Assembly (NCBI GenBank): GCA_041658285.1
Contig: JBBAAP010000002.1
Span: 44,252-108,251 of the forward strand
Reading direction: 5' to 3'
DNA length: 64,000 nt
Source: Candidatus Brocadiia bacterium
Lineage (GTDB): Bacteria; Planctomycetota; MHYJ01; JACQXL01
Below, piece after piece: positions 7,817 to 41,609 of the stretch. A program made the position numbers and the translations under genes. Each line of letters opens with the position of its first letter. The first letter of the stretch is position 1. The notes below the pieces were generated by a model. The model was not told the origin of the DNA. It made no database searches and saw only the letters and a list, made by a program, of their open reading frames with translations.

Positions 7817-7993
7817 TCATCGCATTCTTTTATCCGGCTGTCAAGCTTAGCCACGGATTAACACGGATGAATTACAAACACTAATGCACTCGAATAGACA
7901 CAAATAATTTATTATTTTCACTATTTCGGTCTTTCGTGGTCGAAATTAATCTTAATCAATGGCCTCCGTGTCCTCTGTGGCTGAATTGAGCAG

Positions 7994-16576: not shown

Positions 16577-16769
16577 AATATGCATGAGCAAAGCCTCCTA
16601 ATCAAATAATTAACTCTATAAGATTAGGATATATTAGAATTTGGGAGCGGGGAAAAGCTGATTTACCAAAAATGACGCCAGGAAATGGGCATAAATAGTG
16701 AATTATCCGGCTGGGGAAGTGTCCCTCTAGACCCACGAGAATATTATCTTTTAGCGGGCATCCTGCTTT

Positions 16770-18070: not shown

Positions 18071-18109
18071 AATTTATATTGTTTTATTGCATGCCTTATT
18101 CACTAATCT

Positions 18110-19225: not shown

Positions 19226-19241
19226 AGAAGATACTCCTTTT

Positions 19242-20396: not shown

Positions 20397-20397
20397 A

Positions 20398-21027: not shown

Positions 21028-21052
21028 GCTTATGAATTGTAAAGGATTCCTA

Positions 21053-22849: not shown

Positions 22850-22876
22850 AAATTAAGTTATTACTAAACTATATTA

Positions 22877-23626: not shown

Positions 23627-23627
23627 C

Positions 23628-24968: not shown

Positions 24969-24969
24969 A

Positions 24970-26055
24970 TCACACCTTTTGATTACCTGAGGAATATTCT
25001 TTAATCTGTTCCAGGCAAACATTCCTGAGGTTTGCCTTGTGCTTATAAGCCAAGGACCACTGGACCACCTTATCCAGGGCGTAAGAAAGATTCCAGCGCG
25101 GTTTCCAGCCCAGTAAAGCCCTGGCCTTGAAACAATTAAGCTTCAGGTAACCGGCTTCGTGGAGATGCTGTCTCTTGTCCACCACGTAAAAAGCATCTTT
25201 ACCCCATTTTTGGCAGAGTGTTTTAACAACCCATTCCACCGGTTGGGCATCTTTTTCGTCCGGCCCGAAATTCCATGCCTGGGCGTATCGGGGACCATTT
25301 TTGTAAAGTTTTTGGGCCAGGATAAGGTAACCGGCCAAAGGTTCCAGCACATACTGCCACGGTCTGATTGCCTTGGGATTCCTTATGATGATTTTTTTTC
25401 CTTTTAATAAAAAGTTTACGCAATCCGGAATAAGCCGGTCTCGCGCCCAGTCGCCGCCTCCGATGACATTCCCGGCCCGGGCGGTGGCCACAGCAACTCC
25501 GTGGGCGCGGTATTTATCCGGGTTGAAATAAGAATTGCGGTAAGCAGATGTCACCAGCTCCGAGCAAGCCTTACTGCTGGAATACGGGTCATAACCGCCC
25601 AGCGGGTCATTTTCCTTATACCCTTTAAGTACTTCCAGATTCTCATAGCATTTATCGGTAGTAACATTTATGATTGCCTTTACGCCTTTGCATTGCCTGA
25701 CGGACTCAAGGAGATTAACCGTGCCCATAATGTTTATGGCATAGGTCTCTACCGGCAGTTTATATGAATCGCGCACCAACGGCTGGGCCGCCATATGTAT
25801 GACGATTTCCGGCCGGGCCGACAAAATGGATTTTATCAACGACCGCAAATCACGGACATCCGCGATATTAGATTTGACCAATTTGTTTATCCGACACAAA
25901 TCGTACAAGCTTGGCTTTGTCGGCGGGTTTAAGGCATAACCGATAACCTTAGCGCCGAGAGAATGGAGCCAAAGACATAACCAGGAACCTTTGAAGCCGG
26001 TATGGCCGGTTATGAAAACCCTTTTATTGCGCCAAAAATTATTATCAACTGTCAT
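24970..26055 (-). CDS. ddhB: CDP-glucose 4,6-dehydratase
   Basis: It has the Rossmann motif GHTGFKGSWL and the SDR YxxxK, and is 361 aa as RfbG. Confidence 0.85.
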   Translation of the reverse strand: MTVDNNFWRNKRVFITGHTGFKGSWLCLWLHSLGAKVIGYALNPPTKPSLYDLCRINKLVKSNIADVRDLRSLIKSILSARPEIVIHMAAQPLVRDSYKLPVETYAINIMGTVNLLESVRQCKGVKAIINVTTDKCYENLEVLKGYKENDPLGGYDPYSSSKACSELVTSAYRNSYFNPDKYRAHGVAVATARAGNVIGGGDWARDRLIPDCVNFLLKGKKIIIRNPKAIRPWQYVLEPLAGYLILAQKLYKNGPRYAQAWNFGPDEKDAQPVEWVVKTLCQKWGKDAFYVVDKRQHLHEAGYLKLNCFKARALLGWKPRWNLSYALDKVVQWSLAYKHKANLRNVCLEQIKEYSSGNQKV

Positions 26056-26832
26056 TTAACGCCAGACCTTCCACGGCGCCTTATCGGCCGCCCAAAGGTT
26101 TTCTAAATAGTTCTTGTCCCTTAACGTATCCATCGGCTGGAAAAATCCTTTATGTTTAAACGCCTTTAGCTGACCTCTTTTTGCCAATGCCTCCAGCGGC
26201 TGTCTCTCCAAAATAGTGCTGTCATCTTTCAGGTAATCAAATATGGCCGGCTCAAATACGAAAAATCCGGCGTTTATCCAGCCGCCCTCACCCTTAGGCT
26301 TTTCCTGAAATCCTTTTACTGAATCATTTTGAGACAAATCAAGAACCCCGAACCTGCCTACAGGTTGGGATGCCGTAACAGTCGCTGTCTTGCCGTGCGC
26401 TTTATGGAATTTAACGGCCGCTTTGATATCCACATCGGCCACGCCATCGCCGTAAGTAAGCATAAATGAAGCTTTGCCCACATAGTCTTTAATCCTTTTC
26501 AGCCGACCGCCGGTCATCGTTTCAAGCCCGGTATTTACCAGGGTAACCTTCCACGGTTCGGCCGTATGGGTATGAATTATCTTTTTATTTTGGTTCTTAA
26601 AATCAAAGGTGACATTAGATTCGTGCAGGAAGTAGTTGGCAAAATACTCTTTTATGACATACCCCTTGTATCCCAGGCAGATGATAAAATCGTTGAATCC
26701 GTAATGCGAATAGATTTTCATGATGTGCCAAAGAACAGGTTTTTCGCCGATTTCAATCATCGGCTTGGGTTTAAGCTGAGATTCCTCGCTTATTCTGGAG
26801 CCCAAACCACCGGCAAGTATAACGACTTTCAT
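26056..26832 (-). CDS. ddhA: Glucose-1-phosphate cytidylyltransferase
   Basis: MKVVILAGGLGSRISEE...KPMIEIGEKPVLWHIM is typical of RfbF/DdhA. The length is 258 aa. Confidence 0.85.
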   Translation of the reverse strand: MKVVILAGGLGSRISEESQLKPKPMIEIGEKPVLWHIMKIYSHYGFNDFIICLGYKGYVIKEYFANYFLHESNVTFDFKNQNKKIIHTHTAEPWKVTLVNTGLETMTGGRLKRIKDYVGKASFMLTYGDGVADVDIKAAVKFHKAHGKTATVTASQPVGRFGVLDLSQNDSVKGFQEKPKGEGGWINAGFFVFEPAIFDYLKDDSTILERQPLEALAKRGQLKAFKHKGFFQPMDTLRDKNYLENLWAADKAPWKVWR

Positions 26833-26855
26833 AAAAAGCTCCTTATGTGAAAATT

Positions 26856-28682
26856 TTATTTCAGGTAAATACTAGAAATCATTAATGATAAAGGCCTATC
26901 ATCTTCACTCCAACCCTTTTCCTTGGGAACCACCGCATAGTTAGATTGTATTTTCAAATTAATCAAACTATTTCGTTCAACATCAAGTTCAACTCTAAAA
27001 CTCTCACCCGGCTTAATGACTTTTGTAACAGATAATTTACCATCTATAAAAATCTCTACTTCATTAGGTTCAAAATTACCCGGAAGATAACCGTCAAGTA
27101 CCAGCTTGCCTTCTCCACCGCTTTTAAAAATCGCTTTGGCATTTTTGCCGACCCATTTATCCTGATACCAGCCATCCATCAGCATAGCTGTTTGCAAAGT
27201 ATTTCCAATCTTTTTACCTGCTTCATAATATACATTCAAATTATATTTTTCCATAATTTTCAAGCCATTAATAGTAGTATTCAAATCTGTTATAAATGGC
27301 GTCACGCCCCGTTCATCAACGGGCATTTCATCCGCAGAGACAAAGGCATACGGCACCATCACGGCAAAGTATTTTTTTACATACGGGGCGCGTTTCCAAT
27401 CGTAAATCTCTGAATATATAAGCGCTGAAACAATATAAAATATTATGGCGCTCATTATTAAAATAGGCTTATTTCCAAGCACTCTTTTCATTATATTTTC
27501 ACTCCCCGCATTCCCAGAGCCTCTCAGTAGCTGGGCCTTTTGCTGTATACTATAAATCAATATCCAAATTATGCCTACTATGCCAAACTTATAATGAACG
27601 GTATACCAACGGTCCGTGCCGCCAACCCAATCCCAGGGCCGGCCTATCAATACAAGAATTATTATGCCAAAAGTATACATTATCAATGCTATCGGGAGAA
27701 AAGTTTTCGTCCACATTTTTGAGGAAATGTATAATTTCAAGGAGTATAAATAAATAAGCATTAAAAAGAAACCGTTCAAGAGCAATACAGCAGAACTCGT
27801 ATGGACGTATTCGTGAATGGTCCTGCTGATTATGCCGTTACTGAGGGATGCCAGGATGAATTTAATCACGTGTAGCGGCTGCGAGATTATGCTTATTATT
27901 TTATTCGAAATCCCATTTACAGCCGGATCATTTTGTACTGAGATATGGCCTTTCAAGTAAATTATATAATATAGAAATAGCGAAATCATTAATAGAAGGG
28001 TATTAACAAAAAAACTTTTATCAATTTTTTTGGCAGTAACGAATTTTAATAAATAGAAAATAAAAACCGCCGGTATCCAGGCAAAAGAATACGCTGTCCC
28101 GAATATCAAGATTGACATCAATATCATTACTCCAAGTATTGTATATTTGATTTTAGAGGCCTTTTCCTCAAACATAATTTGGTCCAATAATGCAATTGTT
28201 ATCAAAAAGCAGGCTATGCTCATCCTCACCTGGATGTCCATCCCCCCCCCGATTCCCTGTGACACATTAAACATGACAAAGACAATGAGAATGAAAGATA
28301 TCGGTATGAATAATAAGGCATTAAAATGAAACAAGCTTTTCCTATACCTCAAATAAATGGCGATTGAACTTAATAATATCAAGCTCAAATTTATATAAGC
28401 GTCGAAAAACGCGTTCAGGTGGAAAAAGATTACATTTACAAGAAAAAGTACGTTGTAGCCAAACAAACCGTGTTCGCCGAAAGGAAACCATAAATCCTTG
28501 AATCCCAGAATGCCTTGGTGAAACTTCTCGACTAAAGGCAAATGAACAAACCAGGCCTGCCATATGACATTAACGATGCTGCTATGGATAAAAATAAAAT
28601 AATAAGCGCAAAAAGACAGCAATATTAGTATTATTAAATACTTTTCCCAAATTGAAGTTTTGTTATTCTCAAATGTTTCCAT
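26856..28682 (-). CDS. Polytopic membrane protein (more than 12 TM helices) with a ~180 aa C-terminal soluble domain; candidate GT-C-type (ArnT/PMT-like) glycosyltransferase or polymerase
   Basis: The call rests on hydrophobicity pattern only. I recognise no catalytic motif. Confidence 0.4.
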   Translation of the reverse strand: METFENNKTSIWEKYLIILILLSFCAYYFIFIHSSIVNVIWQAWFVHLPLVEKFHQGILGFKDLWFPFGEHGLFGYNVLFLVNVIFFHLNAFFDAYINLSLILLSSIAIYLRYRKSLFHFNALLFIPISFILIVFVMFNVSQGIGGGMDIQVRMSIACFLITIALLDQIMFEEKASKIKYTILGVMILMSILIFGTAYSFAWIPAVFIFYLLKFVTAKKIDKSFFVNTLLLMISLFLYYIIYLKGHISVQNDPAVNGISNKIISIISQPLHVIKFILASLSNGIISRTIHEYVHTSSAVLLLNGFFLMLIYLYSLKLYISSKMWTKTFLPIALIMYTFGIIILVLIGRPWDWVGGTDRWYTVHYKFGIVGIIWILIYSIQQKAQLLRGSGNAGSENIMKRVLGNKPILIMSAIIFYIVSALIYSEIYDWKRAPYVKKYFAVMVPYAFVSADEMPVDERGVTPFITDLNTTINGLKIMEKYNLNVYYEAGKKIGNTLQTAMLMDGWYQDKWVGKNAKAIFKSGGEGKLVLDGYLPGNFEPNEVEIFIDGKLSVTKVIKPGESFRVELDVERNSLINLKIQSNYAVVPKEKGWSEDDRPLSLMISSIYLK

Positions 28683-28776
28683 AAATCCAAATATTTATTT
28701 CTATCAATAATCTATCGTTTTACCGAACTAACAACTTATTACCTTGTTAATGTATTATCCTTTATACTAAATCGCC

Positions 28777-29469
28777 TTAAGGGAAAATTTGTTTTATTGC
28801 CTTATGATAATCTTCGGGTACGCCTATGTCTATGAAGTAATTCCTACTGGCAAAACCTATTATATTATTATCGGCTATTATCCCGGGAAGGAAATCTATT
28901 TCAAAGCTGAATTTGCCCGGGGAACCGGACATTTTTCTCTTCAGGAATCCTGTTCCCGCCAGATATACCCCGCCGTTTATATGCGCTTTTTTATAAAACG
29001 CCTTTTCCTTAAAACATATTATTTTATTATTCCCGTCTAATTCGACTATGCCGTACCGATCGGAATCCGTTATTTCCTTAACAGCTATGGTCATATCCGC
29101 TTTTTTGTCGTTATGAAACTGTTTCAAGCCATTGATATCACACTTAAAAATAGTATCACCGTTCAGGATAAGAACCTGTTCTCCTGAACACAAGGTCAAC
29201 GCCTTCTTTATGGCTCCGCCGGTGCCCAAAGGCTCGGTTTCCTCGGAGTATTTCAGCTTTATCCCATGCCAGATGTCCCCGAAACGTTCTTTTATCAACT
29301 CGCGCCTGTACCCTACCGCCAGGATGACGGTATCCGCGTAATTTTTGATGTCCGCAAATAGGTATTCCAGGAATGGCCGGCCGTTTATGTCTATCAACGG
29401 CTTGGGGATATCTTTGGAGATTTCTTTGAGGCGTGTGCCCTTACCGCCCGCTAAAATAATCGCTTGCAT
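28777..29469 (-). CDS. Sugar-1-phosphate nucleotidyltransferase (HddC-like D-glycero-D-manno-heptose-1-phosphate guanylyltransferase)
   Basis: MQAIILAGGKGTRLKEIS..PKPLIDINGRPFLEYLF is the NTP-transferase fold. It is 230 aa. Confidence 0.7.
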   Translation of the reverse strand: MQAIILAGGKGTRLKEISKDIPKPLIDINGRPFLEYLFADIKNYADTVILAVGYRRELIKERFGDIWHGIKLKYSEETEPLGTGGAIKKALTLCSGEQVLILNGDTIFKCDINGLKQFHNDKKADMTIAVKEITDSDRYGIVELDGNNKIICFKEKAFYKKAHINGGVYLAGTGFLKRKMSGSPGKFSFEIDFLPGIIADNNIIGFASRNYFIDIGVPEDYHKAIKQIFP

Positions 29470-29613
29470 ATTTTACTAAGTTTCAACCACGAATGTACAC
29501 GAATAAACACTAATATTATTTTTATTTTAACCGCGGATTATACTAATTTTACTGATTATTATTAATTTGTAATGTTACAAGTCTCTTTAAAGTCACTGTT
29601 ATATTCAATCTGA

Positions 29614-30651
29614 TTACTTTGAAGTCCAGGCGGTCAGGCCGTGCTTGGTGAACTGGAACCTGCGGAACTCGCCGCCCAGCTTCTGGAGCGCCTGAATGAC
29701 CTTATACCGGGTATTCCTGGGGCAATAGAGCATCATAAACCCGCCGCCGCCGGCGCCTGACACCTTGCCGCCGGCCGCCCCGGCCTTTTTGGCGGTCTCA
29801 TATATCTCTTCTATCCGGGAATTGGTGATATTGCCGGCCGTCTTCTTCTTGTGATGCCAGCCATAATCGAGGATTTCTCCGATTTTGTTCAGCTCGTTTC
29901 TAAGCAAAGCTTCCTTAAGCATAACCGCCTGGGTTTTCAAGTGGTGCATGGCTTCCAGCGGCGCCTTCTTTTTATGGGTCACGTTCTTCACCTGCGATTC
30001 CACCACGGACGATGAGGTCCGGCTGGCGCCTGTATAGTAAAGCAGGGTGTTAAATTCCAGTTCGGCGATGGATTGCGATTTTATCCTGAGCGGATTGACG
30101 ATGACCTTGTCGCCCTGGTAGAACTCTATGAAATTGAACCCGCCGAAGGTGGCCGCATACTGGTCCTGCTTTCCGCCGGGAAGTTTCAGGTCCCGGCGCT
30201 CTATCTCGTAAGCCAGATGGGCTATATCGTATTCGCCCAACGGCAGGTTGAGCCATTCAACAAAAGCGCCCAAGATGGCCACGGTCAGCGTGGATGACGA
30301 ACCCAGGCCCGAGCCGGGCGGTGCGTCGACATAGGTGGTGATTTTGAACGATAGCGGACGGCCGTTATTGTAGTCCTTTACCACCCGGTTATAGACGCCC
30401 TTTATCAGGTCAAGATTGCCGTCCGGCCTGAGGTATCTGGCAGCCTTAAAAGTCAGAAACTTACCGCGGTCGACGGAATCTATGATTATTTGCTTGTCCT
30501 GATGCGGCTCTATTACGGCGTAGGCGTACATCGAGATGGTGGCGTTGAGTATCTGCCCGCCGTAAAGGTCGGAATAAGGCGAGACATCGGTTCCGCCACC
30601 GGCAAACCCGAGCCGCAAAGGCGCTTTGGCACGAATGATTCGGTTAGGCAT
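29614..30651 (-). CDS. GHMP sugar kinase (HddA-like heptose-7-phosphate kinase)
   Basis: RAKAPLRLGFAGGGTDVSPY plus the GHMP motif PPGSGLGSSS. Confidence 0.7.
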   Translation of the reverse strand: MPNRIIRAKAPLRLGFAGGGTDVSPYSDLYGGQILNATISMYAYAVIEPHQDKQIIIDSVDRGKFLTFKAARYLRPDGNLDLIKGVYNRVVKDYNNGRPLSFKITTYVDAPPGSGLGSSSTLTVAILGAFVEWLNLPLGEYDIAHLAYEIERRDLKLPGGKQDQYAATFGGFNFIEFYQGDKVIVNPLRIKSQSIAELEFNTLLYYTGASRTSSSVVESQVKNVTHKKKAPLEAMHHLKTQAVMLKEALLRNELNKIGEILDYGWHHKKKTAGNITNSRIEEIYETAKKAGAAGGKVSGAGGGGFMMLYCPRNTRYKVIQALQKLGGEFRRFQFTKHGLTAWTSK

Positions 30652-31677
30652 TTATCTCCTCAGGAATAATCTTCCCTTGCTGACATTGGCCCGCCAGTAC
30701 TCAAGCAGGTCCTGCATGGTGGTTTCAAATGGTATCTCCGGTTTCCAGCCGGTGTGTTTCTGGAATTTCCTGGTATCGGGTATCTGCAGGTCGGCGTCTA
30801 TCGGCCTTAATCTTTCCTTATCAACCTCTATTTTGATGTTTTTCACCTTGGCCAAGCTCAGCAAGTATTTGAGCATATCCCCGATAGTGCAGGAATAAGT
30901 GCCGCCGATGTTGTAATATTCGCCCGGAACAGGATTGACCGTAACCAGCATATAATAGGCCCGGACGGCGTCACGCACGTCGGCCCAGGTCCTCATTGAA
31001 TCCAGGTTGCCGACCTGGACCACCGGCGGAAGCAGTTTTGATTCTATCATAGCTATCTGCTTGGCAAAGGTGGATTCGGCGAAGACATCGCCCCGTCTGG
31101 GGCCGGTATGAGTAAACATCCGGGTGGACATGGCTTTAAGGCCATAGGCCTGGGCGTAGAAACGGCCGACCAGATCGGTGCCAACCTTGGATATGGCGTA
31201 AGGCGACGCCGGATGGAAGGACACTTCCTCGTTGATAGGCACTTTTTCCTTGGGCACCCGCCCGAACACCTCGGAAGACGAGCAGACGTGGATGAACGGG
31301 TCGATTGCCCCGGCATCCTTTGATTCCTTGATGGCCTCCATCAGCCGGGTGGTCCCGTTGATATTGGTATCCAGCGTGTCTATGGGCGAATCAAAGCTGG
31401 TCTTGGGATAGCTCTGGGCGGCCAGGTGAAAGACGTAATCAGGCAGAGATTTCTTGATGACCTCGCGCAGGGAGACATAGTCGCGCAGGTCGCCGTAGAG
31501 CAGGTAAACGCGGTCGTTTTTGTTGGCCCTGGGCAGGAGATGCTCGATGTTATCCAGCGGACTGCGCCAGCGGCACATGCCGTAAACGTCCCAATCGGTC
31601 TTGGCAAGCAGGAAGTCAGCCAGGTGAGACCCAACCATGCCGGTAACGCCCGTGATTAAAGCCTTCTTTTTACCCAT
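30652..31677 (-). CDS. GDP-mannose 4,6-dehydratase family (Gmd/DmhA-like)
   Basis: KKALITGVTGMVGSHLADFLL, SPYAISK (YxxxK) and FTHTGPRRG are collinear with Gmd. Confidence 0.8.
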   Translation of the reverse strand: MGKKKALITGVTGMVGSHLADFLLAKTDWDVYGMCRWRSPLDNIEHLLPRANKNDRVYLLYGDLRDYVSLREVIKKSLPDYVFHLAAQSYPKTSFDSPIDTLDTNINGTTRLMEAIKESKDAGAIDPFIHVCSSSEVFGRVPKEKVPINEEVSFHPASPYAISKVGTDLVGRFYAQAYGLKAMSTRMFTHTGPRRGDVFAESTFAKQIAMIESKLLPPVVQVGNLDSMRTWADVRDAVRAYYMLVTVNPVPGEYYNIGGTYSCTIGDMLKYLLSLAKVKNIKIEVDKERLRPIDADLQIPDTRKFQKHTGWKPEIPFETTMQDLLEYWRANVSKGRLFLRR

Positions 31678-31688
31678 AAACGCACCTC

Positions 31689-32543
31689 TTACTTGTTGAA
31701 CTCCTGCTTCATCGCCTCGGCCAAACTTATTGGTCTGCGGCCGAGCAGTTTTTCAAGATAAAGCGATTTCAGGTTGATAATTTTCGGCCGCGCCCGGTAA
31801 AATTCTTTACCAGGTTCCGCTATTTTCATCTGCAGGCTATTATCCACGACCCTTTTATATATTTCGGTAATATCCAGCTTGGAAACCAGATTATCACCGC
31901 AGATATTGAATACCGGGTTTTTTAATTTATCCCAGTTATTTTTTAGGGCGATAATCGCATCCAGCAGGTCATTGAGATAGATAACATTACGGGAAACCGG
32001 ATGATATATCTCGGCCGTCTGCTTTGTTTGAGAGCATTTTTGCAAGTAGGTGGTCATTTTATCGGCCTTGGAAAATATATAGGACATCCGAAATACCTTG
32101 AATTGCTTTTCGGGCAGGAACTGGCGTTCTATTTCGTTTTTCATCTGGGCGTATCTGCCGTGCGGGTTAGCAAGTGAATTCTCATCCACCTGATTTTGTG
32201 ACTCGCCGTAAACCGTATCCGAGGAAAAGAACAGCACCCGGGCCCGGCGTTCCAGGCATTTCCTGATGAAATAGGCCGTTCCGGTAACGTTTATCCGGTA
32301 TGCCATTTCGTATTGCTGTTCGCAGACATCAGGCAGGGAGATGGCCGCCAGGTGGGCGACGAAATCATCGGGGCTGATAAAACTGTAATCGAAATCGGCC
32401 GGCTTGTTCAGGTCCAAGCGCCGGCAATCAGGATTAAGAGGCACATTAAGAGCGGTGTACTTGATATCTTCCGTCCGGGTAAACCTTTCGATAAAGGCAT
32501 TTCCGATAAACCCCTCTTTACCGCCGACGACTAAAATACTCAT
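31689..32543 (-). CDS. Extended-SDR NAD(P)-dependent sugar epimerase/reductase (DmhB- or RfbD-like)
   Basis: It has a Rossmann N-terminus and YAQMK (YxxxK), and is 284 aa. Confidence 0.6.
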   Translation of the reverse strand: MSILVVGGKEGFIGNAFIERFTRTEDIKYTALNVPLNPDCRRLDLNKPADFDYSFISPDDFVAHLAAISLPDVCEQQYEMAYRINVTGTAYFIRKCLERRARVLFFSSDTVYGESQNQVDENSLANPHGRYAQMKNEIERQFLPEKQFKVFRMSYIFSKADKMTTYLQKCSQTKQTAEIYHPVSRNVIYLNDLLDAIIALKNNWDKLKNPVFNICGDNLVSKLDITEIYKRVVDNSLQMKIAEPGKEFYRARPKIINLKSLYLEKLLGRRPISLAEAMKQEFNK

Positions 32544-32549
32544 GTTCGC

Positions 32550-35500
32550 TTATTCCATCACGATGCCGATATCGCTAAAAATCTTCCTGAAAGTTTTATC
32601 AGCGTAATCCATTGAATTATTGTTTTTGACGTATTGTATAGATTGCTTGGAAATCTTATCCCATAAAAGATTATTCTTATAAAGCGATATCACCTTTCGG
32701 GCAAAATCATCGGCCTTATCGGTAATCATGGCCGTTTGGCCGTCCATCAAATTCAACCCCTCAGCCCCGATAGAAGTTGTGACCATAGGCAGGCCGAAAC
32801 TCATAGTCTGGATATTCTTGCCTTTTATGCCGGCGCCGTAACGAAGCGGCGAGACAAACACCCGGGCGTTCTCGAAATACGGCGCCACATCCTTGGCATA
32901 ACCAACCACCTTTACGCCCTTTTCGGGCGAATCCAAGGCCAGCACCTCCGGCGTCGGCTTACTGCCCACAATGGTCAATGTCACATCCGGTATGCCTGAT
33001 TTCACCAGCGGATAAACCTCCTTGATGAACCATTTGATGCCGTCGGCATTAGGCGGATGCTGGAACCCGCCCAAGAAGAATAATCCGTTTCTTTTGTTAA
33101 AACCGGCCTTGGAAAGGCTTATCTCCTGGATATAAGGGACAACCACTGTTTTCGCCTTGGGAAGCTCCTTGGCTACAATCTCTTTTTCCACCGGGCTCAG
33201 GGTCAGGGCAACGTCGCTCTTGGCTATCAGGTATAATTCCTTGGATTTATATTCTTTCGACCGCTTGAGCGCTTCCTTGTCGTTTTCGAGCAGGCCTTTC
33301 CGCTCCTCCCTGAGGAAATACAAGTCAACCAGGTCATACAAGACCTTGATGTTAGCCACGGATTTTATGGTATCAATATACGGCATCGCCACGTCCGGCC
33401 GGGTCAGGAAGGCAACATCTATATGCTTGCCGTAATTCTTGATGTATTTATTAAAATCATTAGGCCCGTAAACCAGTTCTATACCCATCTGCTCCAGTTC
33501 CGGTCCGTAAGGCTCGTAGCGGTAAAGGTTATGGGGCCAGAATATAATTTTAAAACCCATATTAAGGAATATCTTAAGGTACTCATACATCCTGACCGAG
33601 CCGGCATCCTGGTCCCAAGTGGGCACATTATTATCCATAAACAGCATTATCTTCTTATTGCGCGACCGGTCACGGGCTAGGAAGACGTTTTCGCCGTTCT
33701 TGAAATGCTCCTTTTCCAAAACTGTCTGCCACTTGCGGTAGAATTTTTGAGTATTAATGACCTGGTATTTTTTCATTCCCTGGGCGGTGTCGGTACCGGC
33801 GGTAACGCCTTCGAAATGGATTATTTCGGCTTTTGGCTGATACATCACCTTGTATCCTTTTTGCCTGACCCGGAACGCCAGGTCGGTATCCTCGCAATAG
33901 GCCGGGGCGTAGTATGTATCAAACAGGTCTTCGCCCTTGAGAACGCTTTTCCTGACCAGCAGGCAGGCGCCGGAACAATAATCCACCTCCTTGACATAGT
34001 TATATTCCCATTTCTTGGGGTCGTCGAGCCGGCCATAGTTCCAGGCAATGTTGATTGGGTCGTTCCAGATGATGCCGCCGGCCTCCTGGAGCCGGCCGTC
34101 GGGATAGACCAGCTTGGTCCCGACCAGGCCGATTTTATCATCCCTCTGGGCCAGGTCCGTCATCGCCTTAAGCCAACCTTTGGTTACCTTGGTATCGTTA
34201 TTCAAAAGGAGTATGTATTTGCCTTTGGACAGCTCCGCGCCCTTGTTGCAAGCACCGACGAATCCAAGATTAGTTTCGTTCCTAATGACCTTGATATTCT
34301 TTATCTTTGCCAACATTTGAGGCGTTTCGTCTTCCGATGCGTTATCTACGACAATCACCTCGTAAGGCGCGCCATCGGTATTTTCAACCAACGATTCCAG
34401 GCATTTATGGGTATATTCACACTTGTTCCAAACCGGGATGATGATAGAAACATCCGGTTTACTAACAGCCGGGAATTCTATGGCTTTCCATTCCCGGGAC
34501 TGGCCCGGTTCCGATTTGGGAAGTTCTTGAACAGGCGCAGTTTGCCGGACCGGCGGCGTCCAGACCTTGGATGTTTCATTCTTCCTCAACCATCTGAACG
34601 TAACCGCATTCCAGCAAAACCGCCAGGTTGCCTTGGCCATCCGCCGGCGCCGGCTGTCCAAGGGCAGGATAAAATTGCGAAACCTGTAATATACGGATAT
34701 AACCCGCCAGCCGTGCGAGTTATGGATTTCCTCGAGGTCATAGGCCATATGCCGGTTTTCCATCTGCAGGTTTGCGATATGGGTATTATTTTCATCTATC
34801 TCCTTTTGTAGTCTATTACCCCACTGCCCGCGCCTGACGCATTCAGCGTCCAATTCATCCACTTGTTTTTGCAGGCGCACGCCCCATTCACCTCGCTTAA
34901 CAATTTCATTATCCATATCCTTGATTTTAGCAGCATTATTATTTAGCTGTTTTTGAAGTGTCAGAATTTGCTCATCCTTATTAATGATTGTACCCTGCAA
35001 TTCTGACATTTTAAAATGACCGCTTGATAACTCGGCCTCTAACTTAACTATTTTTATGCGATTGACAGACAGATCTTTTTCTAATTCCACATTCCGTGCC
35101 TTCAACGCAGTAAACTCAACCCCCAGCTCCTTAAGCTGAACCTTATTATCGTTCAGGACAGCAACCATCTCCTCGAGATGTTTCTGGCGCTTATCAAGTT
35201 CAACCTCTAATTTAGAGATATGGTCCTTGATAAAGGTCTGGAGCAGGTTGATATTGGTGGTAACGGTGGTTTCCAGGGACTTGATGATACGTTCCTTATC
35301 GGAGATGGACTGATTAAGCCCGACAATAACCTGATTTTTCTGCCTGACCTCGGCATCCAAGCCCTGGCCCCACTTGCCCAGTTTTTCCGCCTCCTGCTGG
35401 AGCTCTGATATGCGCCGCCCCTGCCTGGTTAATTCCGCGTCCAGGCTTTTGCCCCAATCGCTCAGTTTTTTTATTTCTGCCTGGCGTTCGACCAATAAGC

Positions 35501-36689
35501 TATCACGTTCCTTATTGCCAGCATCTAATTCTTGACCCCATTTGCTAAGATTTTCTATTTCTTTCTGTAATTCGATGATTCTTTGGTTTCCTTGATTCAA
35601 CTCGGCATCTAATTGAATACTATGATTACTGAGCTTTTCTATTTCCGCTTGGCGTTCGACCAATAACTTATCCCGCTCTTTGCTGCCGGCATCTAATTCC
35701 TGTCCCCATTTGCCAAGCTTTTCTATTTCCACCTGTTGCGCTGCTAATAAGGTATCTTTTTCTTCGCCTTCTGATTCCAACGATTTTCCCCATTTACCAA
35801 TTTTTTGCACTTCATTTTGAAGCTCTACAATCCGTTTCTCGTATTGTTTTATCTGTTCATCCAGTGATTTACCCCATTTTGACAACTCTTCGATTTGGCT
35901 ATTTTGCGAAGAAATTAAATTATCCTTTTCCGCAAACAGTCTGAATGAAGTGTCCACAAGGTAGGAATTATATTTAATGTCAACCTTGCCGTTAGACGCA
36001 ACTGCAATGAAATAGAAAGGCTCTTTTCTCTTCACGCTCGCGTATTTAAGTTCCTTGCCTGAGCTTTTTAGGCTCAATTCCTGCCAGTCCCGATATGAAC
36101 CCTTTAAATCCCATATATTGGACGACGGAAATATCCTTTGCCCGAGAAATGAAGCGTTCTTGAAATACTTTTTCATCAAGCCGGAAAACTCGTTGATATC
36201 AAGCTCTTTTTTATGGAATGAATTTCGATAATTGCGTTTATTCGAATAAACTGGCTTATTTGGCGTAGAAACAATAAATAAACCATCATCCTTAAGCAGT
36301 CTTTTGACCTCTTTTAACAGCTTGGCCTGCTCTTTTATGTGCTCAAGGACCTCATAACATACTATGACATCGAATAAATTCTTACCTTTTAACGGAATGT
36401 CCCTGACATCGCCAATCTTGAATTTCAAGTTTTCCTGACGATACTTTTTTAAAGCGTGATTAATTGCGGCCTTATCAATATCAATGCCTATTACCGATTT
36501 AGCTGTTTGGGCCAAAAAAAACGACCCATACCCTTCGCCGCATCCTACATCTAGGACTTTTTTGTCTTTAACGAATTCCCCAGCGAACCCATAGCGATGC
36601 AGGTGCTCATAATGGGTATCCGCGGTCGGACCAACAGGAACGAACCGCTCCCCGGTCCATTCAAGATTTGTTGTTTTTTTTACTATCAT
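32550..36689 (-). CDS. Giant multidomain glycan-synthesis enzyme: class I SAM methyltransferase, ~350 aa coiled-coil with tandem KWG(K/Q)xLD repeats, a GT2 domain and a GT4 domain
   Basis: The MTase motif is VLDVGCGEGYGSF. The ~37 aa repeats read L(S/G)KWGxxLD. The GT2 domain is VSIIIPVWN...VVDNASED, and the GT4 C-terminus has the E-x7-E-type motifs. Confidence 0.75.
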   Translation of the reverse strand: MIVKKTTNLEWTGERFVPVGPTADTHYEHLHRYGFAGEFVKDKKVLDVGCGEGYGSFFLAQTAKSVIGIDIDKAAINHALKKYRQENLKFKIGDVRDIPLKGKNLFDVIVCYEVLEHIKEQAKLLKEVKRLLKDDGLFIVSTPNKPVYSNKRNYRNSFHKKELDINEFSGLMKKYFKNASFLGQRIFPSSNIWDLKGSYRDWQELSLKSSGKELKYASVKRKEPFYFIAVASNGKVDIKYNSYLVDTSFRLFAEKDNLISSQNSQIEELSKWGKSLDEQIKQYEKRIVELQNEVQKIGKWGKSLESEGEEKDTLLAAQQVEIEKLGKWGQELDAGSKERDKLLVERQAEIEKLSNHSIQLDAELNQGNQRIIELQKEIENLSKWGQELDAGNKERDSLLVERQAEIKKLSDWGKSLDAELTRQGRRISELQQEAEKLGKWGQGLDAEVRQKNQVIVGLNQSISDKERIIKSLETTVTTNINLLQTFIKDHISKLEVELDKRQKHLEEMVAVLNDNKVQLKELGVEFTALKARNVELEKDLSVNRIKIVKLEAELSSGHFKMSELQGTIINKDEQILTLQKQLNNNAAKIKDMDNEIVKRGEWGVRLQKQVDELDAECVRRGQWGNRLQKEIDENNTHIANLQMENRHMAYDLEEIHNSHGWRVISVYYRFRNFILPLDSRRRRMAKATWRFCWNAVTFRWLRKNETSKVWTPPVRQTAPVQELPKSEPGQSREWKAIEFPAVSKPDVSIIIPVWNKCEYTHKCLESLVENTDGAPYEVIVVDNASEDETPQMLAKIKNIKVIRNETNLGFVGACNKGAELSKGKYILLLNNDTKVTKGWLKAMTDLAQRDDKIGLVGTKLVYPDGRLQEAGGIIWNDPINIAWNYGRLDDPKKWEYNYVKEVDYCSGACLLVRKSVLKGEDLFDTYYAPAYCEDTDLAFRVRQKGYKVMYQPKAEIIHFEGVTAGTDTAQGMKKYQVINTQKFYRKWQTVLEKEHFKNGENVFLARDRSRNKKIMLFMDNNVPTWDQDAGSVRMYEYLKIFLNMGFKIIFWPHNLYRYEPYGPELEQMGIELVYGPNDFNKYIKNYGKHIDVAFLTRPDVAMPYIDTIKSVANIKVLYDLVDLYFLREERKGLLENDKEALKRSKEYKSKELYLIAKSDVALTLSPVEKEIVAKELPKAKTVVVPYIQEISLSKAGFNKRNGLFFLGGFQHPPNADGIKWFIKEVYPLVKSGIPDVTLTIVGSKPTPEVLALDSPEKGVKVVGYAKDVAPYFENARVFVSPLRYGAGIKGKNIQTMSFGLPMVTTSIGAEGLNLMDGQTAMITDKADDFARKVISLYKNNLLWDKISKQSIQYVKNNNSMDYADKTFRKIFSDIGIVME

Positions 36690-36703: not shown

Positions 36704-36934
36704 TTATTTAGTTTTAAAGTTAATATCGGCTGATTTCAAGCGCGGGTGTTTTTTATCCTTATCCGATACCAGAGGGTTCTGAACCGGCCAGGCGATGGCG
36801 ATATCCGGGTCGTTCCAAATAATTCCCCGGTCGTTCCCAAGCCAATCTTTGGTTGATTTTACACTCTTCATATAACAACAGGATAAGTAAACTATAAACC
36901 TGCCAATTGTCAATAAAACAGGACTACTATACAA
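36704..36934 (-). pseudogene. Orphan duplicate of the last ~25 codons of rfbC fused to unrelated upstream sequence; a remnant of the recombination that inserted the abiE cassette
   Basis: The 74 bp at 36762-36835 are identical to 38595-38668 inside rfbC. The encoded C-terminus GIIWNDPDIAIAWPVQNPLVSDKDKKHP matches RfbC. Confidence 0.7.
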
Positions 36935-37070: not shown

Positions 37071-37745
37071 CTAACGGAAATTATTCACGCTAAACTCGTA
37101 AATAATCCGGGTTAATACCTTAAAATTGGCGGTTTTATAGTATCTGCGCTGGTCGGACTCCAGCAGTGAACCCAGCTTGACGGCGTAATCGTTCGGTTTT
37201 AGCGCGCTTATGACTTCTAATATCTGCCCGGCGGTTTCCCGGCTGGTTTGCGGCTTGACCCCTTTTTTCAGCAGGAACTCGATGTCAAAGGCATCACGGA
37301 TTTCCTTGCGGTCGAGAAACGCCTCTATTTTAGCCTGCATCATGTCGTCAAGCGATACGGCCCGGACCGGCACCTGGATGTCGGCATAACGGCTGTAGGC
37401 TATGGCCGATTCGGTCTTGATGTCTTTTTTCTCTTTGCGCACTTCTATTTTCAAACTGCGCGGAAAGTCCTTTGATTTGAGCTCCAGCAGAATGGTGTAG
37501 AATTTGTTCCGGCTGTCTTTCAGGGTGTACGCTCCGGACAAGCATTCTTTCAGGTTTTTGTATAACCCGGCCCGGTCAAGGTCATTGGTAATCCAGAAAT
37601 CAAGGTCTACGGAAAATCGGTTTAACCCGAAACACAGCCTGAGCATGGTCCCGCCGCCAAAGGTCAGGTTGCCCAACAACCGGGCGCTGTTGAGTTTGTC
37701 CAGAACCTCCATCTCAAACCGTTCCTGCTTGATCAAGTCTTGCAT
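37071..37745 (-). CDS. abiEii: AbiEii/AbiGii-family nucleotidyltransferase toxin (type IV TA)
   Basis: FGGGTMLRLCFGLNRFSVDLDFW matches the AbiEii GGTAL...R.S.DIDF nucleotidyltransferase motif. It is 224 aa and sits 4 nt downstream of the partner gene. Confidence 0.75.
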   Translation of the reverse strand: MQDLIKQERFEMEVLDKLNSARLLGNLTFGGGTMLRLCFGLNRFSVDLDFWITNDLDRAGLYKNLKECLSGAYTLKDSRNKFYTILLELKSKDFPRSLKIEVRKEKKDIKTESAIAYSRYADIQVPVRAVSLDDMMQAKIEAFLDRKEIRDAFDIEFLLKKGVKPQTSRETAGQILEVISALKPNDYAVKLGSLLESDQRRYYKTANFKVLTRIIYEFSVNNFR

Positions 37746-37748
37746 ATT

Positions 37749-38366
37749 TTATCCCTTGCGCACCATCAATAACTTATTAATCGCCGATTGCGTCCGGAGC
37801 GGGAATCTCCCGGCAATCCGCCTTAGTTCTTTCCTGTCCAGCCGGCCTAACGACAGCGAATTTAAATCCGGACGATATTTGCCGATGGAATAGAGATAGA
37901 GCGTATCTGCCAGAGCCTTTTCCGGCGTAGCGATAAAAATGCCGTCTTTTTTGACAAACCCGAAGTAAAGCCGTTTTTTCAGTTTGTAGTAGTTAAAGGC
38001 AACGCCTTTGATGTCATATTTGATGGAACGCTTAAGCGCGGCGCTTTCCGTAAAATTGCGCTGGACCTGGGTGGTCATGTCATAAATCCCCAGGGCGGTC
38101 ATAAATGAAATATAAGACGGCACCTGGAGAAAATTGGCGGCCTTTAAAAGCTCTTCAGACGATACATCAGCCCATTTCTGGGAAAAAGCGTAGACATTAT
38201 TTTTTAGCCGGGTGAATATGCCGTTTTTTACGTACCGGCTGCAGAGAACCCTGATTGATGCCGGCTTTATGCCCAGGACTCTTTGGAGTTCGACCGGGGT
38301 AAAATACATTTTTGACTGCAATGACGACAATTTGGGATAATTCATATTAACCCGCTTCTTCCGCAT
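37749..38366 (-). CDS. abiEi: AbiEi-family antitoxin / transcriptional regulator
   Basis: It is about 200 aa and sits immediately upstream of abiEii. It has an N-terminal winged-helix-like region. Confidence 0.55.
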   Translation of the reverse strand: MRKKRVNMNYPKLSSLQSKMYFTPVELQRVLGIKPASIRVLCSRYVKNGIFTRLKNNVYAFSQKWADVSSEELLKAANFLQVPSYISFMTALGIYDMTTQVQRNFTESAALKRSIKYDIKGVAFNYYKLKKRLYFGFVKKDGIFIATPEKALADTLYLYSIGKYRPDLNSLSLGRLDRKELRRIAGRFPLRTQSAINKLLMVRKG

Positions 38367-38554: not shown

Positions 38555-39094
38555 TCACGAATGTTGCTTAAATGAAGGATGCTTCTTGTCCTTCTCCGAT
38601 ACCAGAGGGTTCTGAACCGGCCAGGCGATGGCGATATCCGGGTCGTTCCAAATAATTCCCCGGTCGTTGGCGGGCGAGTATTCTTCCGTACACTTATATA
38701 TCACGTCTGCCTGGTCGCTCAGCACCACGAACCCGTGCGCAAACCCGGCCGGCACATAGAGCATCATCTTGTTCAGCTCGGACAATTCGGCGCTGACCCA
38801 TTTGCCGTAGGTCGCGGACTTCCTGCGGATATCCACGGCCACGTCCCAGATCGCCCCCTTGACGCACCTGACCAGCTTGCCCTGCGCCTTGGGCGATTTC
38901 TGGTAATGCAAACCCCTTAATACGTTCCTGATTGAGTAAGAATGATTGTCCTGCAGGAAGTGCTCGGGTATGCCCATCGCGGTAAACTCGCTGTGCTTGT
39001 AGGTCTCGATGAAGAACCCGCGGGAGTCGGCAAAGACCTTGGGCTCGATGAGCACGACCTCGGGGATGGATAGTTTGGTAAAATTAAAACTCAT
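38555..39094 (-). CDS. rfbC: dTDP-4-dehydrorhamnose 3,5-epimerase
   Basis: It has the cupin fold motifs RGLHYQ, GKLVRCVKGAIWDVAVDIR and GFAHGFVVLSD. It is 179 aa. Confidence 0.9.
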   Translation of the reverse strand: MSFNFTKLSIPEVVLIEPKVFADSRGFFIETYKHSEFTAMGIPEHFLQDNHSYSIRNVLRGLHYQKSPKAQGKLVRCVKGAIWDVAVDIRRKSATYGKWVSAELSELNKMMLYVPAGFAHGFVVLSDQADVIYKCTEEYSPANDRGIIWNDPDIAIAWPVQNPLVSEKDKKHPSFKQHS

Positions 39095-39245: not shown

Positions 39246-39443
39246 TCACATCTTCATCAGCCGGTCGACCATTTTCCTGAACGGTTTAGCCCGGTGGTTG
39301 ATAAATTCGTTATATTGGGTAACAAATTCCAGGTAGCTATCAACCCCGGTTTTACGGTTTTTGAAGGGATTATGCCGGTTTTTTGCTACCGCCCGCATGT
39401 CACGGGAAATAGCCGTTTGCTCAATCGTTTTAAGGGAAATCAT
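39246..39443 (-). CDS. Small basic protein (65 aa), downstream partner of the nucleotidyltransferase
   Basis: It overlaps the upstream gene by 4 nt (ATGA). I recognise no motifs. Confidence 0.3.
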   Translation of the reverse strand: MISLKTIEQTAISRDMRAVAKNRHNPFKNRKTGVDSYLEFVTQYNEFINHRAKPFRKMVDRLMKM

Positions 39444-40009
39444 AGCCCGTAACTCCGGTATAGTTTATTATATACATTGGCCATTTCAAACATGCTAAAA
39501 TACTTCTTTAACAACTTCCAGTCAAGCTTATTTCTATGGAGCGACATCAGCGCTTCGATATCGGGCAGGTCCTGCTTTTGGCGGACGGGGTCGTTATTGA
39601 TGGCCTGAAGTTTCAGGCCGATGATGTCTTCGGGCTTCAATACCCTGATTTTAAGCGCTCCGTTGAATATCTCTTTCTTACCGGCCCGTTTGAGCATCCC
39701 CAGGCTGACCGGGCGAAAGGCATACAAAAAGTCCACCTCGCCAAAAACATTCAAGTCTGAAACATATTGCCCCACGTTCTCGGTCTGGAAACGGCATTGA
39801 TAGCCGAGTTTCTTCATAATGACGTCAATTTGGTCGATATCGTCCCGGTCGGCCAGGAAATCTATATCCACGGTAGACCTCCCGGCGCCCCACAGCCCCA
39901 TGGCAAAACCGCCTATCAGCGCGTATTTGACACCTGACCGATCAAAGGCGACCAGCAGTTTCTGAAGCACTAATTTGAAGTCCATATATTTAGCCCTATT
40001 TTTAACCAC
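39440..40009 (-). CDS. Nucleotidyltransferase-fold protein sharing the AbiEii-like GG..A..L....R.S.DIDF motif
   Basis: IGGFAMGLWGAGRSTVDIDFLADRDD. The length is 189 aa. Confidence 0.55.
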   Translation of the reverse strand: MVKNRAKYMDFKLVLQKLLVAFDRSGVKYALIGGFAMGLWGAGRSTVDIDFLADRDDIDQIDVIMKKLGYQCRFQTENVGQYVSDLNVFGEVDFLYAFRPVSLGMLKRAGKKEIFNGALKIRVLKPEDIIGLKLQAINNDPVRQKQDLPDIEALMSLHRNKLDWKLLKKYFSMFEMANVYNKLYRSYGL

Positions 40010-40138: not shown

Positions 40139-41020
40139 TTATATTCCTTTGTTAAGAAATTTCTCCAGATATTGGCCGTAGGAGCTCTTTTTCAACGGTT
40201 CTATCAGTTTCTTAAACTGTTCTTTATCTATATAGCCCAATTCATAAGCCAGTTCTTCGACGCAGGCAATCTTCTGTCCCTGCCTCTTTTCGATAATAGC
40301 AATGAACTCGCTGGCCTCCAAGAGGTTCTCGCAGGAGCCGGTGTCCAGCCAGGCCGTTCCGCGGCCCAATAATTCCACCCTCAAAGCATTCTTCTTGAGG
40401 TATTCGCGGTTGACGTCGGTTATTTCCAGCTCGCCCCGGGCCGAGGGCTTGATGGACTTGGCTACCTTGACCACATTGTTATCGTAATAATACAGGCCGG
40501 TGACGGCGTAGTTTGATTTAGGATGCGCGGGCTTTTCCTCTATTGACAGCGCCTTGCCGGACTTGTCAAAATCGACCACGCCGTAGGCGACCGGGTTCTG
40601 GACGTAATAGCCGAATACCGTGGCGCCACGCTGAGCTTTGACATCGGCCACCACCCGCTTCATCAGGTTGGTCAGCCCGTGCCCGTAAAAGATGTTGTCG
40701 CCCAGCACCAGGCAGACGTCGTCCTTGCCGATGAACTCTTCACCGATGAGAAACGATTCGGCCAGACCCTTGGGCTGGAGCTGTTCTTTGTAGCTGAGCT
40801 TCAGGCCCAGGTGCGCGCCGTCGCCGAAGATAGCCTTGAACCGGGGCAGGTCCTGGGGTGTGGAGATTATCAGGATTTCCCGGATGCCGGATATCATCAG
40901 GATAGACAAGGGGTAGTATATCATCGGCTTGTCGTAAACGGGCAATAACTGCTTGCAGACGGCCTGAGTGATGGGATAGAGCCGGGTGCCGCTACCGCCG
41001 GCTAAGATGATACCTTTCAT
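40139..41020 (-). CDS. rfbA: Glucose-1-phosphate thymidylyltransferase
   Basis: [18 protein letters not shown]...[17 protein letters not shown] is canonical RmlA. It is 293 aa. Confidence 0.9.
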
Positions 41021-41095: not shown

Positions 41096-41371
41096 CTAAA
41101 TCCTTTGTGAAACTATTTTATAAACTACGGAGCGGTGCAAAATAGCCAAAACCCATACCTCGTTTTTGTTTACCTTATAAACAACCCGGTAGTCCCCGAC
41201 GCGCAGTTTCCAGTATCCACTCAAGGGCTTGCGCAGGGGGTGCCCGTATTTTTCTGGTTCAATGGTCAGCCGCGTTTCTATGGCGGTTGATATCCTGACA
41301 CGGGCGGTCTTGTCAATCGCCGGGATGTCGCTTTCCTTAACCTTATGGTGGTATAAAATTGTATAGGCCAT
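41096..41371 (-). CDS. RelE/ParE-family type II toxin
   Basis: It is 91 aa and has the RelE/StbE-like core GYWKLRVGDYRVVYKVNKNEVWVLAILHR. Confidence 0.75.
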   Translation of the reverse strand: MAYTILYHHKVKESDIPAIDKTARVRISTAIETRLTIEPEKYGHPLRKPLSGYWKLRVGDYRVVYKVNKNEVWVLAILHRSVVYKIVSQRI

Positions 41372-41378
41372 ATAGCCG

Positions 41379-41609
41379 TTATTTGGGAAATACCTGCCGG
41401 TGGGTCAGGGCTTTCTTGCGGTTAAATGTCCGCTCGCGCTCTTCGGCAACGCCGGTCAAGACTACGTCCTCGAAGTATTCAAGGCTCATACTGACCAGGT
41501 CCCGGACTTTATAAGAAAGCGAGACTCCGTCGTCATGGGCTAATTTTCTTATGGCCTGGTAAATGGGACGGTCTAAGACTACATTTATTCTGGGGTTCTT
41601 GGCTGACAT
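41379..41609 (-). CDS. Ribbon-helix-helix (CopG/ParD-like) antitoxin
   Basis: MSAKNPRINVVLDRPIYQAIRKLA is the RHH beta-strand and helix. The start is at the ATG at 41609, preceded by the Shine-Dalgarno sequence AAGGAG. The ORF-table N-terminal extension is unlikely to be real. Confidence 0.6.
   Translation of the reverse strand: MSAKNPRINVVLDRPIYQAIRKLAHDDGVSLSYKVRDLVSMSLEYFEDVVLTGVAEERERTFNRKKALTHRQVFPK

Follow-up and report, generated by a model that had tools for sequence, protein, structure and literature searches.

A long-coiled methyltransferase-GT2-GT4 fusion from Candidatus Brocadiia as a candidate terminator, ruler and polymerase of a surface glycan

What would a bacterium make with a single polypeptide that joins a methyltransferase, several hundred residues of predicted helix and two glycosyltransferase (GT) modules? 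The question is raised by a 64-kb stretch of DNA (hereafter the window) from a Candidatus Brocadiia bacterium, in which an open reading frame (ORF) of 1379 amino acids (aa) runs uninterrupted on the minus strand, with exactly the coordinates given in the initial annotation (Table 1). We consider it likely that its product follows the terminator-ruler-polymerase model of the type represented by WsaE, WbbB and the ORF6 protein of Klebsiella pneumoniae O7. The enzyme would be cytoplasmic and membrane-proximal and would assemble a polysaccharide, its GT2 and GT4 modules alternately lengthening a lipid-linked glycan; L-rhamnose, a 6-deoxyheptose or another deoxy-sugar is the probable donor. The N-terminal S-adenosylmethionine (SAM)-dependent methyltransferase would O-methylate the non-reducing end, at which point elongation would stop. 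The coil in between would act as a molecular ruler, with the distal methyltransferase capping those chains long enough to reach it, and a Wzm/Wzt ABC transporter, with genes at another site in the genome, would then export the capped chain. We infer the sugar specificity and the presence of such a transporter and, by analogy with the named systems, the ruler function and the terminal position of the methylation.

Domain architecture of the fusion protein

Domain searches bore out the initial annotation, which had proposed an N-terminal class I SAM methyltransferase followed by a coiled coil, a GT2 domain and a C-terminal GT4 domain. The methyltransferase core matched Pfam Methyltransf_31 (residues 41-162, 9e-27) and Methyltransf_11 (1.4e-22), and the domain contains motif I (VLDVGCGEGYG, residues 45-55); the segment VLDVGCGEGYGS that had been used to recognize it lies in this domain. 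Residues 163-250 had no Pfam family match and were modelled by AlphaFold2 as beta strands completing the methyltransferase fold. Because only ~85 aa lie between the methyltransferase core and the coil, there is no space for a kinase, and no kinase family was matched in the protein with either Pfam or NCBIfam.

The two GT modules were recognized by sequence and by structure prediction. Residues 748-961 matched Glycos_transf_2 (6e-30), and residues 1202-1339, which make up the C-terminal half of the GT4 domain, matched Glyco_trans_1_4 (5e-25). AlphaFold2, given 60 homologues, modelled residues 655-1379 with high confidence (predicted local distance difference test (pLDDT) 90.5; predicted template modelling score (pTM) 0.84), showing a GT-A fold at 747-994 and a complete GT-B fold at 1014-1373, the folds expected of CAZy-type inverting GT2 and retaining GT4 modules, respectively. 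In Foldseek searches of the PDB, the neighbours of the GT-A part were ppGalNAcT and K4CP (chondroitin polymerase), and the closest structures to the GT-B part were PglA, BshA, MshA and sucrose-phosphate synthase (SPS), with template modelling scores (target) of ~0.7. Both of our models retrieved generic GT-A, GT-B and methyltransferase neighbours from the PDB and no WbdD- or WbbB-like global match.

The protein appears to be intact. The LNNDT motif (829-833) and E933, D934 and D936 are invariant or near-invariant among homologues, and every residue that is invariant in 40-60 homologues is kept, including SAM motif I, the DxD-type and ED motifs of GT2 and the R/K-G-rich motif of GT4; there is therefore no sign of a dead enzyme. 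An identical protein (P0001) was found on three contigs, two of which come from separate samples (ENA ERZ27247322 and Logan SRR8449812; NCBI and JGI are also listed as sources), which speaks against an assembly artefact. It is annotated as 'glycosyltransferase' in a Candidatus Brocadiia bacterium metagenome-assembled genome (MAG; Planctomycetota). An antisense ORF of 368 aa (33705-34811, plus strand), wholly inside the GT2-coding part, was set aside as most likely a mechanical ORF without independent support.

Between the methyltransferase and the GT modules, residues 251-657 (407 aa) contain no proline. Hydrophobic residues recur here with a period of 3.5 residues, with z = 15.8 against shuffled controls for residues 251-475 and z = 4.1 for residues 476-657, and the same measure gave z ~0 in the three catalytic domains. 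An AlphaFold2 monomer model of residues 1-1000, with the alignment anchored by GT2, predicted helices at 250-387, 393-555 and 561-657 (pLDDT 60-80, pTM 0.40), and the heptad register shifts near residues 467-481. The coiled coil of the initial annotation thus stands as a heptad-rich, predicted helical segment rather than a disordered one without heptads, with its length corrected from ~350 aa to ~400 aa. Pfam searches with the isolated linker returned only sub-threshold generic coiled-coil matches (such as ATG16, HOOK, SlyX and crescentin). As a continuous rod, 407 residues would span ~60 nm, ~3x the coil implied by the family median, and we infer that the coil adopts an oligomeric extended state.

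The same model places two short helices (659-674 and 680-701) after the coil, and a disordered Pro-rich stretch after these. The helices belong to a conserved junction element that starts with the family motif SxxW(R/K)...P..S.RR, found in 101 of 221 homologues. Their net charge is +5 to +6, their hydrophobic moment (0.3-0.38) is unexceptional, and there is no transmembrane (TM) segment. We hypothesize that this element may be a membrane-association or docking segment.

Length variation in the linker and the tryptophan repeat

The architecture is widespread. Each of the best 120 homologues, whose lengths run from 976 to 2002 aa, combines a methyltransferase with GT2 and GT4 domains, and a second search from a Paenibacillus member retrieved 1121 proteins at E <= 1e-50, many of them from Paenibacillus, Aneurinibacillus, Lysinibacillus and clostridia. 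The GT2-GT4 core is present in at least 470 species-representative genomes from the Proteobacteria, Bacteroidota, Firmicutes, Verrucomicrobiota, Actinomycetota and Planctomycetota. The one-polypeptide layout is the rule for a large family and no peculiarity of the present gene. The initial annotation had stressed that everything was 'all in one polypeptide', and the uniqueness that this implied has to be given up: hundreds of homologues are alike, and WsaE, WbbB and O7 ORF6 had already been described.

The linker between the methyltransferase and GT2 is the variable part of the protein and measures 48-613 aa in a set of 214 homologues (quartiles 199, 224 and 265). At 490 aa the present protein lies near the upper end of this range, and only seven of the 214, itself included, reach at least 490 aa. 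A comparison of repeat number among relatives had been suggested initially, and it revealed a linker that varies mostly by heptad multiples. We identified 14 homologue pairs with at least 85% identity and aligned 12 of them. Eight of the aligned pairs differ by a single clean indel, which falls in the methyltransferase-to-GT2 linker in every case (91, 28, 56, 14, 7, 7, 128 and 8 aa), and six of the eight indels are multiples of the heptad (91, 28, 56, 14, 7 and 7 aa). Two homologues (P0035 and P0039), for example, are 99% identical once a single insertion of 91 aa (13 heptads) within the repeats is set aside. Because the heptad-multiple indels are confined to the linker, the linker seems to evolve by length change that preserves the register. 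Judged from these alignments, such heptad-quantised change is the signature expected of a coiled coil selected for length and supports length tuning. By analogy with WbdD and WbbB, the length of the glycan may in turn track the length of the coil.

Much of the coil is built from repeats. The tandem KWG repeats of the initial annotation are present, with a period of 28 aa (84 nt, four heptads) in place of the ~37 aa first given. Six of the seven copies carry WG (residues 272, 300, 328, 384, 412 and 440), KWG is replaced by NHS in the degenerate copy at 356, and each repeat holds two Gly residues. The array is also visible in the DNA, as had been noted at the outset, by its 84-nt spacing across 35350-35880 and by a 108-nt segment that is duplicated 168 nt away with 81% identity. 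Tandem Repeats Finder missed the array, reporting one unrelated 15-nt repeat only, because the repeat copies share just 45-65% identity at the DNA level.

There is no dedicated Pfam model for the 28-aa Trp repeat, and a search of 1.84 billion representative proteins with residues 252-475 alone retrieved only 133 matches at E <= 1e-3. Among the proteins from this search, a W(A/G)xxL motif occurs up to 26 times, with 400 of 431 spacings being multiples of 7 and 316 exactly 28. Within the family the spacings between Trp motifs are multiples of 7 in 71 of 72 instances, the exception being the gap between the two sub-arrays of the present protein. Many of the matches are proteins of 400-740 aa consisting of a methyltransferase and the repeat, a WbdD-like standalone layout, and methyltransferase-GT2-GT4 fusions were also recovered. 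Other matches have N-terminal polysaccharide pyruvyltransferases, sulfotransferase-like domains or DUF4915 (function unknown). The GT2-GT4 core together with the junction motif (SxSWR.T.PLR) is likewise found after coils headed by sulfotransferase-like domains, by pyruvyltransferase and FrhB-like domains or by an extra GT4 domain. This modularity of repeat and core fits the published interchangeable terminators on coiled-coil rulers.

The 28-aa Trp cassette appears to be undescribed in the literature that we searched. We tentatively raise the possibility, which we hold with less than even confidence, that the Trp repeat (~LQxExxxxxxW(A/G)xxLDxEL...) is a distinct, uncatalogued and portable 'ruler cassette' that grows and shrinks by whole heptads or 28-aa units and is joined both to heads of differing end-modifying chemistry, namely methyl-, pyruvyl- and sulfotransferases, and to a shared GT2-GT4 polymerase core. 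One 28-aa unit corresponds to ~4.2 nm. If such a cassette exists, repeat copy number would be a genomic predictor of surface-glycan chain length, and the present protein, with nine Trp motifs and a ~60-nm coil, would specify one of the longest chains of the family.

Table 1. Features of the fusion gene and its surroundings (positions in the window; residues of the 1379-aa product)
Feature	Position	Strand	Details
Whole ORF	32550..36689	-	Methyltransferase, coiled coil, GT2, GT4
Class I SAM-dependent methyltransferase domain	35958..36623	-	Residues 23-244; Pfam core 41-162
Proline-free heptad-periodic helical linker, candidate coiled-coil ruler	34719..35942	-	Residues 250-657
Seven 28-aa (84-nt) repeats	35307..35894	-	Residues 266-461; consensus IEKLSKWGxxLDAExxxxxxxIVELQxE
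Two extra (E/Q)WGxRLQK motifs	34782..34907	-	W602 and W623, 21 aa apart, near the C-terminal end of the coil
Conserved junction element	34581..34715	-	Residues 659-703; two basic aromatic-rich helices
Pro-rich flexible linker (low confidence)	34455..34580	-	Residues 704-745
GT2 / GT-A glycosyltransferase module	33708..34451	-	Residues 747-994; conserved VVDNAS.DET, LNNDT and EDxD motifs
GT4 / GT-B glycosyltransferase module	32571..33650	-	Residues 1014-1373
Four co-directional downstream genes	28777..32543	-	RmlD-like reductase, Gmd-like 4,6-dehydratase, HddA-like heptose-7-P kinase, HddC-like heptose-1-P guanylyltransferase
Duplicated rmlC 3' end	36744..36835	-	92 nt, 94.6% identical to 38577-38668; adjoins the ORF upstream
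AbiEii toxin and AbiEi-like antitoxin cassette	37071..38366	-	Between rmlC and the ORF
rmlC (dTDP-4-dehydrorhamnose 3,5-epimerase)	38555..39094	-	
rmlA-type glucose-1-phosphate nucleotidyltransferase	40139..41020	-	

Genomic context and alternative explanations

The initial annotation had invoked the logic of ABC-transporter-dependent O antigens, and at the level of homologues this holds. In all seven homologue contigs that we inspected, wzm (ABC2_membrane) and wzt (ABC_tran) lie directly upstream of the fusion gene, within ~4 kb, often with rmlABCD just ahead of them, and wzt encodes a Wzt_C carbohydrate-binding domain in four of the seven. Across the seven homologue loci (L001, L003, L006, L007, L010, L011 and L012), the four with a linker of at least 241 aa pair with a Wzt that bears Wzt_C, and the three with a linker of at most 219 aa pair with a short Wzt that lacks it. 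Small as a sample of seven loci is, it suggests an association of long rulers with cap-reading transporters.

Genes for sugar-nucleotide synthesis accompany the fusion gene in the window as well. The downstream kinase is HddA-like (2.5e-128) and the guanylyltransferase HddC-like (8e-62); the dehydratase is best described as Gmd-like and the reductase weakly matches RmlD, both under the NCBIfam cut-offs. On the strength of these matches, the four downstream genes probably supply GDP-(6-deoxy)heptose rather than representing rmlB and rmlD. Several homologue loci have the same downstream order as the window (reductase, 4,6-dehydratase, GHMP kinase, (SIS), NTP-transferase).

Several findings weigh against the terminator-ruler-polymerase model, the main weaknesses being the missing transporter and initiation genes and a coil modelled only as a monomer. 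A search for wzm and wzt had been proposed in the initial annotation, and Pfam searches of the sizeable ORFs found neither, nor any ABC ATPase, in the window or in the 10 kb on either side of it; 12 Wzm/Wzt proteins used as six-frame tblastn queries found none over the same region. If the bacterium has such a transporter, its genes must be on another part of the 433-kb contig or outside it. Linkage to wzt is common and not universal: of 80 species-representative loci with the GT2-GT4 core, wzt lies within 6 kb in 34 and is missing from that distance in 46. No initiating phosphoglycosyltransferase, adaptor GT or ligase was found in the window. The dTDP-rhamnose pathway is represented locally by rmlA and rmlC only, with no rmlB or rmlD in the 84 kb of window and flanks. 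The monomer model splits the coil into three helices, and an extended parallel coil goes beyond what it predicts. Finally, the kinship with WsaE was drawn from architecture and gene order alone, and O7 ORF6 was compared by description only. The combination of terminator, coil and GTs proposed in the initial annotation is thus upheld by the domains, by wzm/wzt in homologue loci and by the heptad indels, and not by its uniqueness, a local transporter or the repeat period.

The protein might instead be a bifunctional polymerase that methylates sugars within the chain, with the coil serving only to oligomerise or scaffold the enzyme and measuring no length. K. pneumoniae O1 has a terminal modification without length control, some family linkers are merely 48-65 aa long, which indicates that catalysis does not depend on a long spacer, and a Wzt with a cap-reading carbohydrate-binding module (CBM) is absent from the window and its 10-kb flanks. 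We nevertheless consider internal methylation unlikely. Close relatives differ by indels in the linker only, mostly of whole heptads, as would fit selection for the length and register of the coil, and homologues with long linkers pair with Wzt_C-bearing transporters. Moreover, the same coil is joined to other end-modifying enzymes, and the described prototypes put their terminators at the coil's distal end (PMC11231755). A different objection concerns the shape of the helical region, which could be a folded-back antiparallel bundle of helices of 138, 163 and 97 aa that would provide a spacing of ~20 nm or less, not 60 nm, with the Trp-Gly motifs packing intramolecularly. The breaks in the AlphaFold2 monomer at 388-392 and 556-560, the shift in heptad register and the two Gly residues per repeat would all suit such a bundle. 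However, monomer predictions routinely fold long coiled coils back, the model is of low confidence in this region, and the break at 388-392 falls within a regular repeat whose six sister copies are helical. A continuous rod also better suits the arrays of up to 26 same-period repeats in relatives, and we regard the folded-back bundle as improbable.

It is also conceivable that the gene is the orphaned remnant of a rearranged polysaccharide locus that has received toxin-antitoxin (TA) insertions and lost wzm/wzt, rmlB and rmlD, and that no exported glycan is made any longer. An AbiE cassette with a duplicated rmlC 3' end does lie directly upstream, two further TA-like modules sit among the rml genes, and the transporter, the initiating enzyme, rmlB and rmlD were not found within 84 kb. 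Yet the 4.1-kb ORF is uninterrupted and retains all family-invariant residues, an identical protein occurs in assemblies of separate samples, and the downstream sugar-nucleotide genes are intact and co-directional. Because dispersed polysaccharide genes are common as well, we give the orphan explanation very little credence.

The region has clearly been remodelled by TA insertions. Reading upstream from the ORF, the order is the rmlC-end duplicate, AbiEi/AbiEii, intact rmlC, an AbiEii-like gene, rmlA and a ParE module. The duplicate was also called as a 76-aa dTDP_sugar_isom fragment, and the direct duplication of the rmlC 3' end on the flank of the AbiE cassette looks like the footprint of the cassette's insertion between rmlC and the fusion gene. 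The AbiEii/NTP_transf_5-like gene among the rml genes is at 39440-40009, and the ParE toxin, with a small upstream ORF, is at ~41096-41609 (5081-5594 of L004), giving three TA-type insertions within ~5 kb of the glycan locus. We considered whether a TA cassette had displaced wzm/wzt and rejected this, because the rmlC-end duplicate abuts the ORF, suggesting that rmlC was directly upstream already before the insertion. In the homologue locus L001, a nucleotidyltransferase/HepT TA pair lies between wzm and wzt (7836-8686).

Elsewhere in the window, a 608-aa protein encoded at 26856-28682 (minus strand) has no Pfam or NCBIfam match and consists of ~10-11 predicted TM helices and a ~190-aa soluble C-terminal domain, and it resembles a GT-C glycosyltransferase. 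A PgfS/ArnC-like GT2 (16770-17705) and a GtrA-family protein (17702-18070) are encoded in the same operon direction, and the three together resemble a three-component periplasmic glycosylation system. The segment at 21053-26832 (minus strand) encodes RfbF, RfbG and RfbH, which score above NCBIfam cut-offs (route from CDP-glucose to a 3,6-dideoxyhexose precursor); next come a protein with a metallo-beta-lactamase fold and a thiamine diphosphate (ThDP) enzyme resembling acetolactate synthase. The segment is reminiscent of the pathways for branched-chain dideoxy sugars (yersiniose-type), and no E3 reductase was identified. The G+C content is 0.40-0.45 over much of 16000-30000 (0.49 at 24-26 kb), compared with ~0.50-0.55 in the flanking housekeeping regions, and such low G+C in a glycan locus is typical of horizontally exchanged surface-polysaccharide clusters. 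Two large proteins are probably surface-associated: one of 1818 aa (51935-57391, plus strand) with a PQQ-like beta-propeller, DUF11 and SdrD B-like domains, and one of 838 aa (60524-63040, minus strand) with three fn3 domains and seven RCC1 repeats. A 289-aa protein (57568-58437, minus strand) has the unusual layout of three tandem HTH_17/AlpA-type helix-turn-helix domains and nothing else.

Relation to known terminator-ruler-polymerase systems

If our reading is right, the terminator-ruler-polymerase strategy, so far known from enterobacterial O antigens and Firmicutes surface-layer (S-layer) glycans, would extend to the Planctomycetota (class Brocadiia). The sole Planctomycetota glycoconjugate in the literature that we searched is a short non-repeating S-layer O-glycan. 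The S-layer O-glycan of Kuenenia was ruled out as the product of the present enzyme, being a six-sugar non-repeating oligosaccharide. With linkers that change in heptad quanta, differences in chain length between strains might be predicted from sequence, and inserting or deleting 28-aa units might allow chain length to be engineered. As regards the window itself, the outcome is largely an improvement in annotation and answers no open question; the present protein is an unusually long-coiled member of an already described class.

Within that class, WsaE from Geobacillus stearothermophilus NRS 2004/3a is a trifunctional soluble enzyme of the S-layer poly-L-rhamnan, in which an N-terminal 2-O-methyltransferase caps the rhamnan and both the central and the C-terminal domain are rhamnosyltransferases; its gene directly follows wzm and wzt, and rmlABCD is in the cluster (PMC2943079, PMC3898925, PMC9415975). 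The likeness to the present protein lies in the single polypeptide with an N-terminal O-methyltransferase and then two glycosyltransferase domains. For WsaE the methyl cap is proposed to end growth; the pathway depends on an ABC transporter, and its locus includes rml genes. The order wzm-wzt-wsaE is that of the homologue loci sampled, and the family is abundant in S-layer-glycosylating Firmicutes (such as Paenibacillus, Aneurinibacillus and Lysinibacillus). In contrast, the source of the present protein is a MAG of the Planctomycetota (Brocadiia), and the protein has a ~490-aa linker that is ~2x the family median and lacks adjacent wzm/wzt. The name WsaE is absent among the 240 listed homologues, there is no WsaE in the PDB, and a ruler role for any WsaE coil is not described in the literature that we searched.

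In ORF6 of K. pneumoniae O7, a coiled coil stands centrally between a methyltransferase(-kinase) and two GT modules that depend on dTDP-rhamnose (Kelly et al. 2024, PMC11231755). It shares with the present protein the layout of a single ~1400-aa chain with an N-terminal methyltransferase, a central coil and two C-terminal GT modules, and rml and wzm/wzt genes are in its cluster. Unlike the present protein, it adds methyl-phosphate and carries, between its methyltransferase and coil, a CBM and a cryptic kinase of 223 aa. Both of its GT modules are described as GT2, whereas the second module here is a 360-aa GT4 / GT-B domain.

In all such systems a coiled-coil molecular ruler bears the terminator at its distal end, with WbbB (O12) as the fully integrated prototype and WbdD/WbdA as the split one (PMC11231755). 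WbbB, from K. pneumoniae O12 and Raoultella terrigena, likewise unites terminator, coiled-coil ruler and two-module polymerase in one polypeptide (PMC11231755). Its terminator is a beta-Kdo (3-deoxy-D-manno-oct-2-ulosonic acid) glycosyltransferase, and its polymerase modules are of other GT families; the PDB search gave no sequence relationship between WbbB and the present protein. The same search gave a weak match to WbdD at the level of the methyltransferase (E ~4e-4). Such terminators are reportedly the subject of a bioinformatic survey by Mann, Kimber and Whitfield in 2019.

In the WbdD/WbdA systems (Escherichia coli O9a and O8; K. pneumoniae O3 and O5), the terminator and the polymerase are separate proteins, WbdD has a kinase in O9a, and the polymerase uses GT4 mannosyltransferases. 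What they have in common with the protein described here is a coil headed at its N-terminal end by a class I methyltransferase, which in those systems caps the chain with methyl or methyl-phosphate. There the polymerase is near the membrane end, and the length of the coil sets the length of the O antigen.

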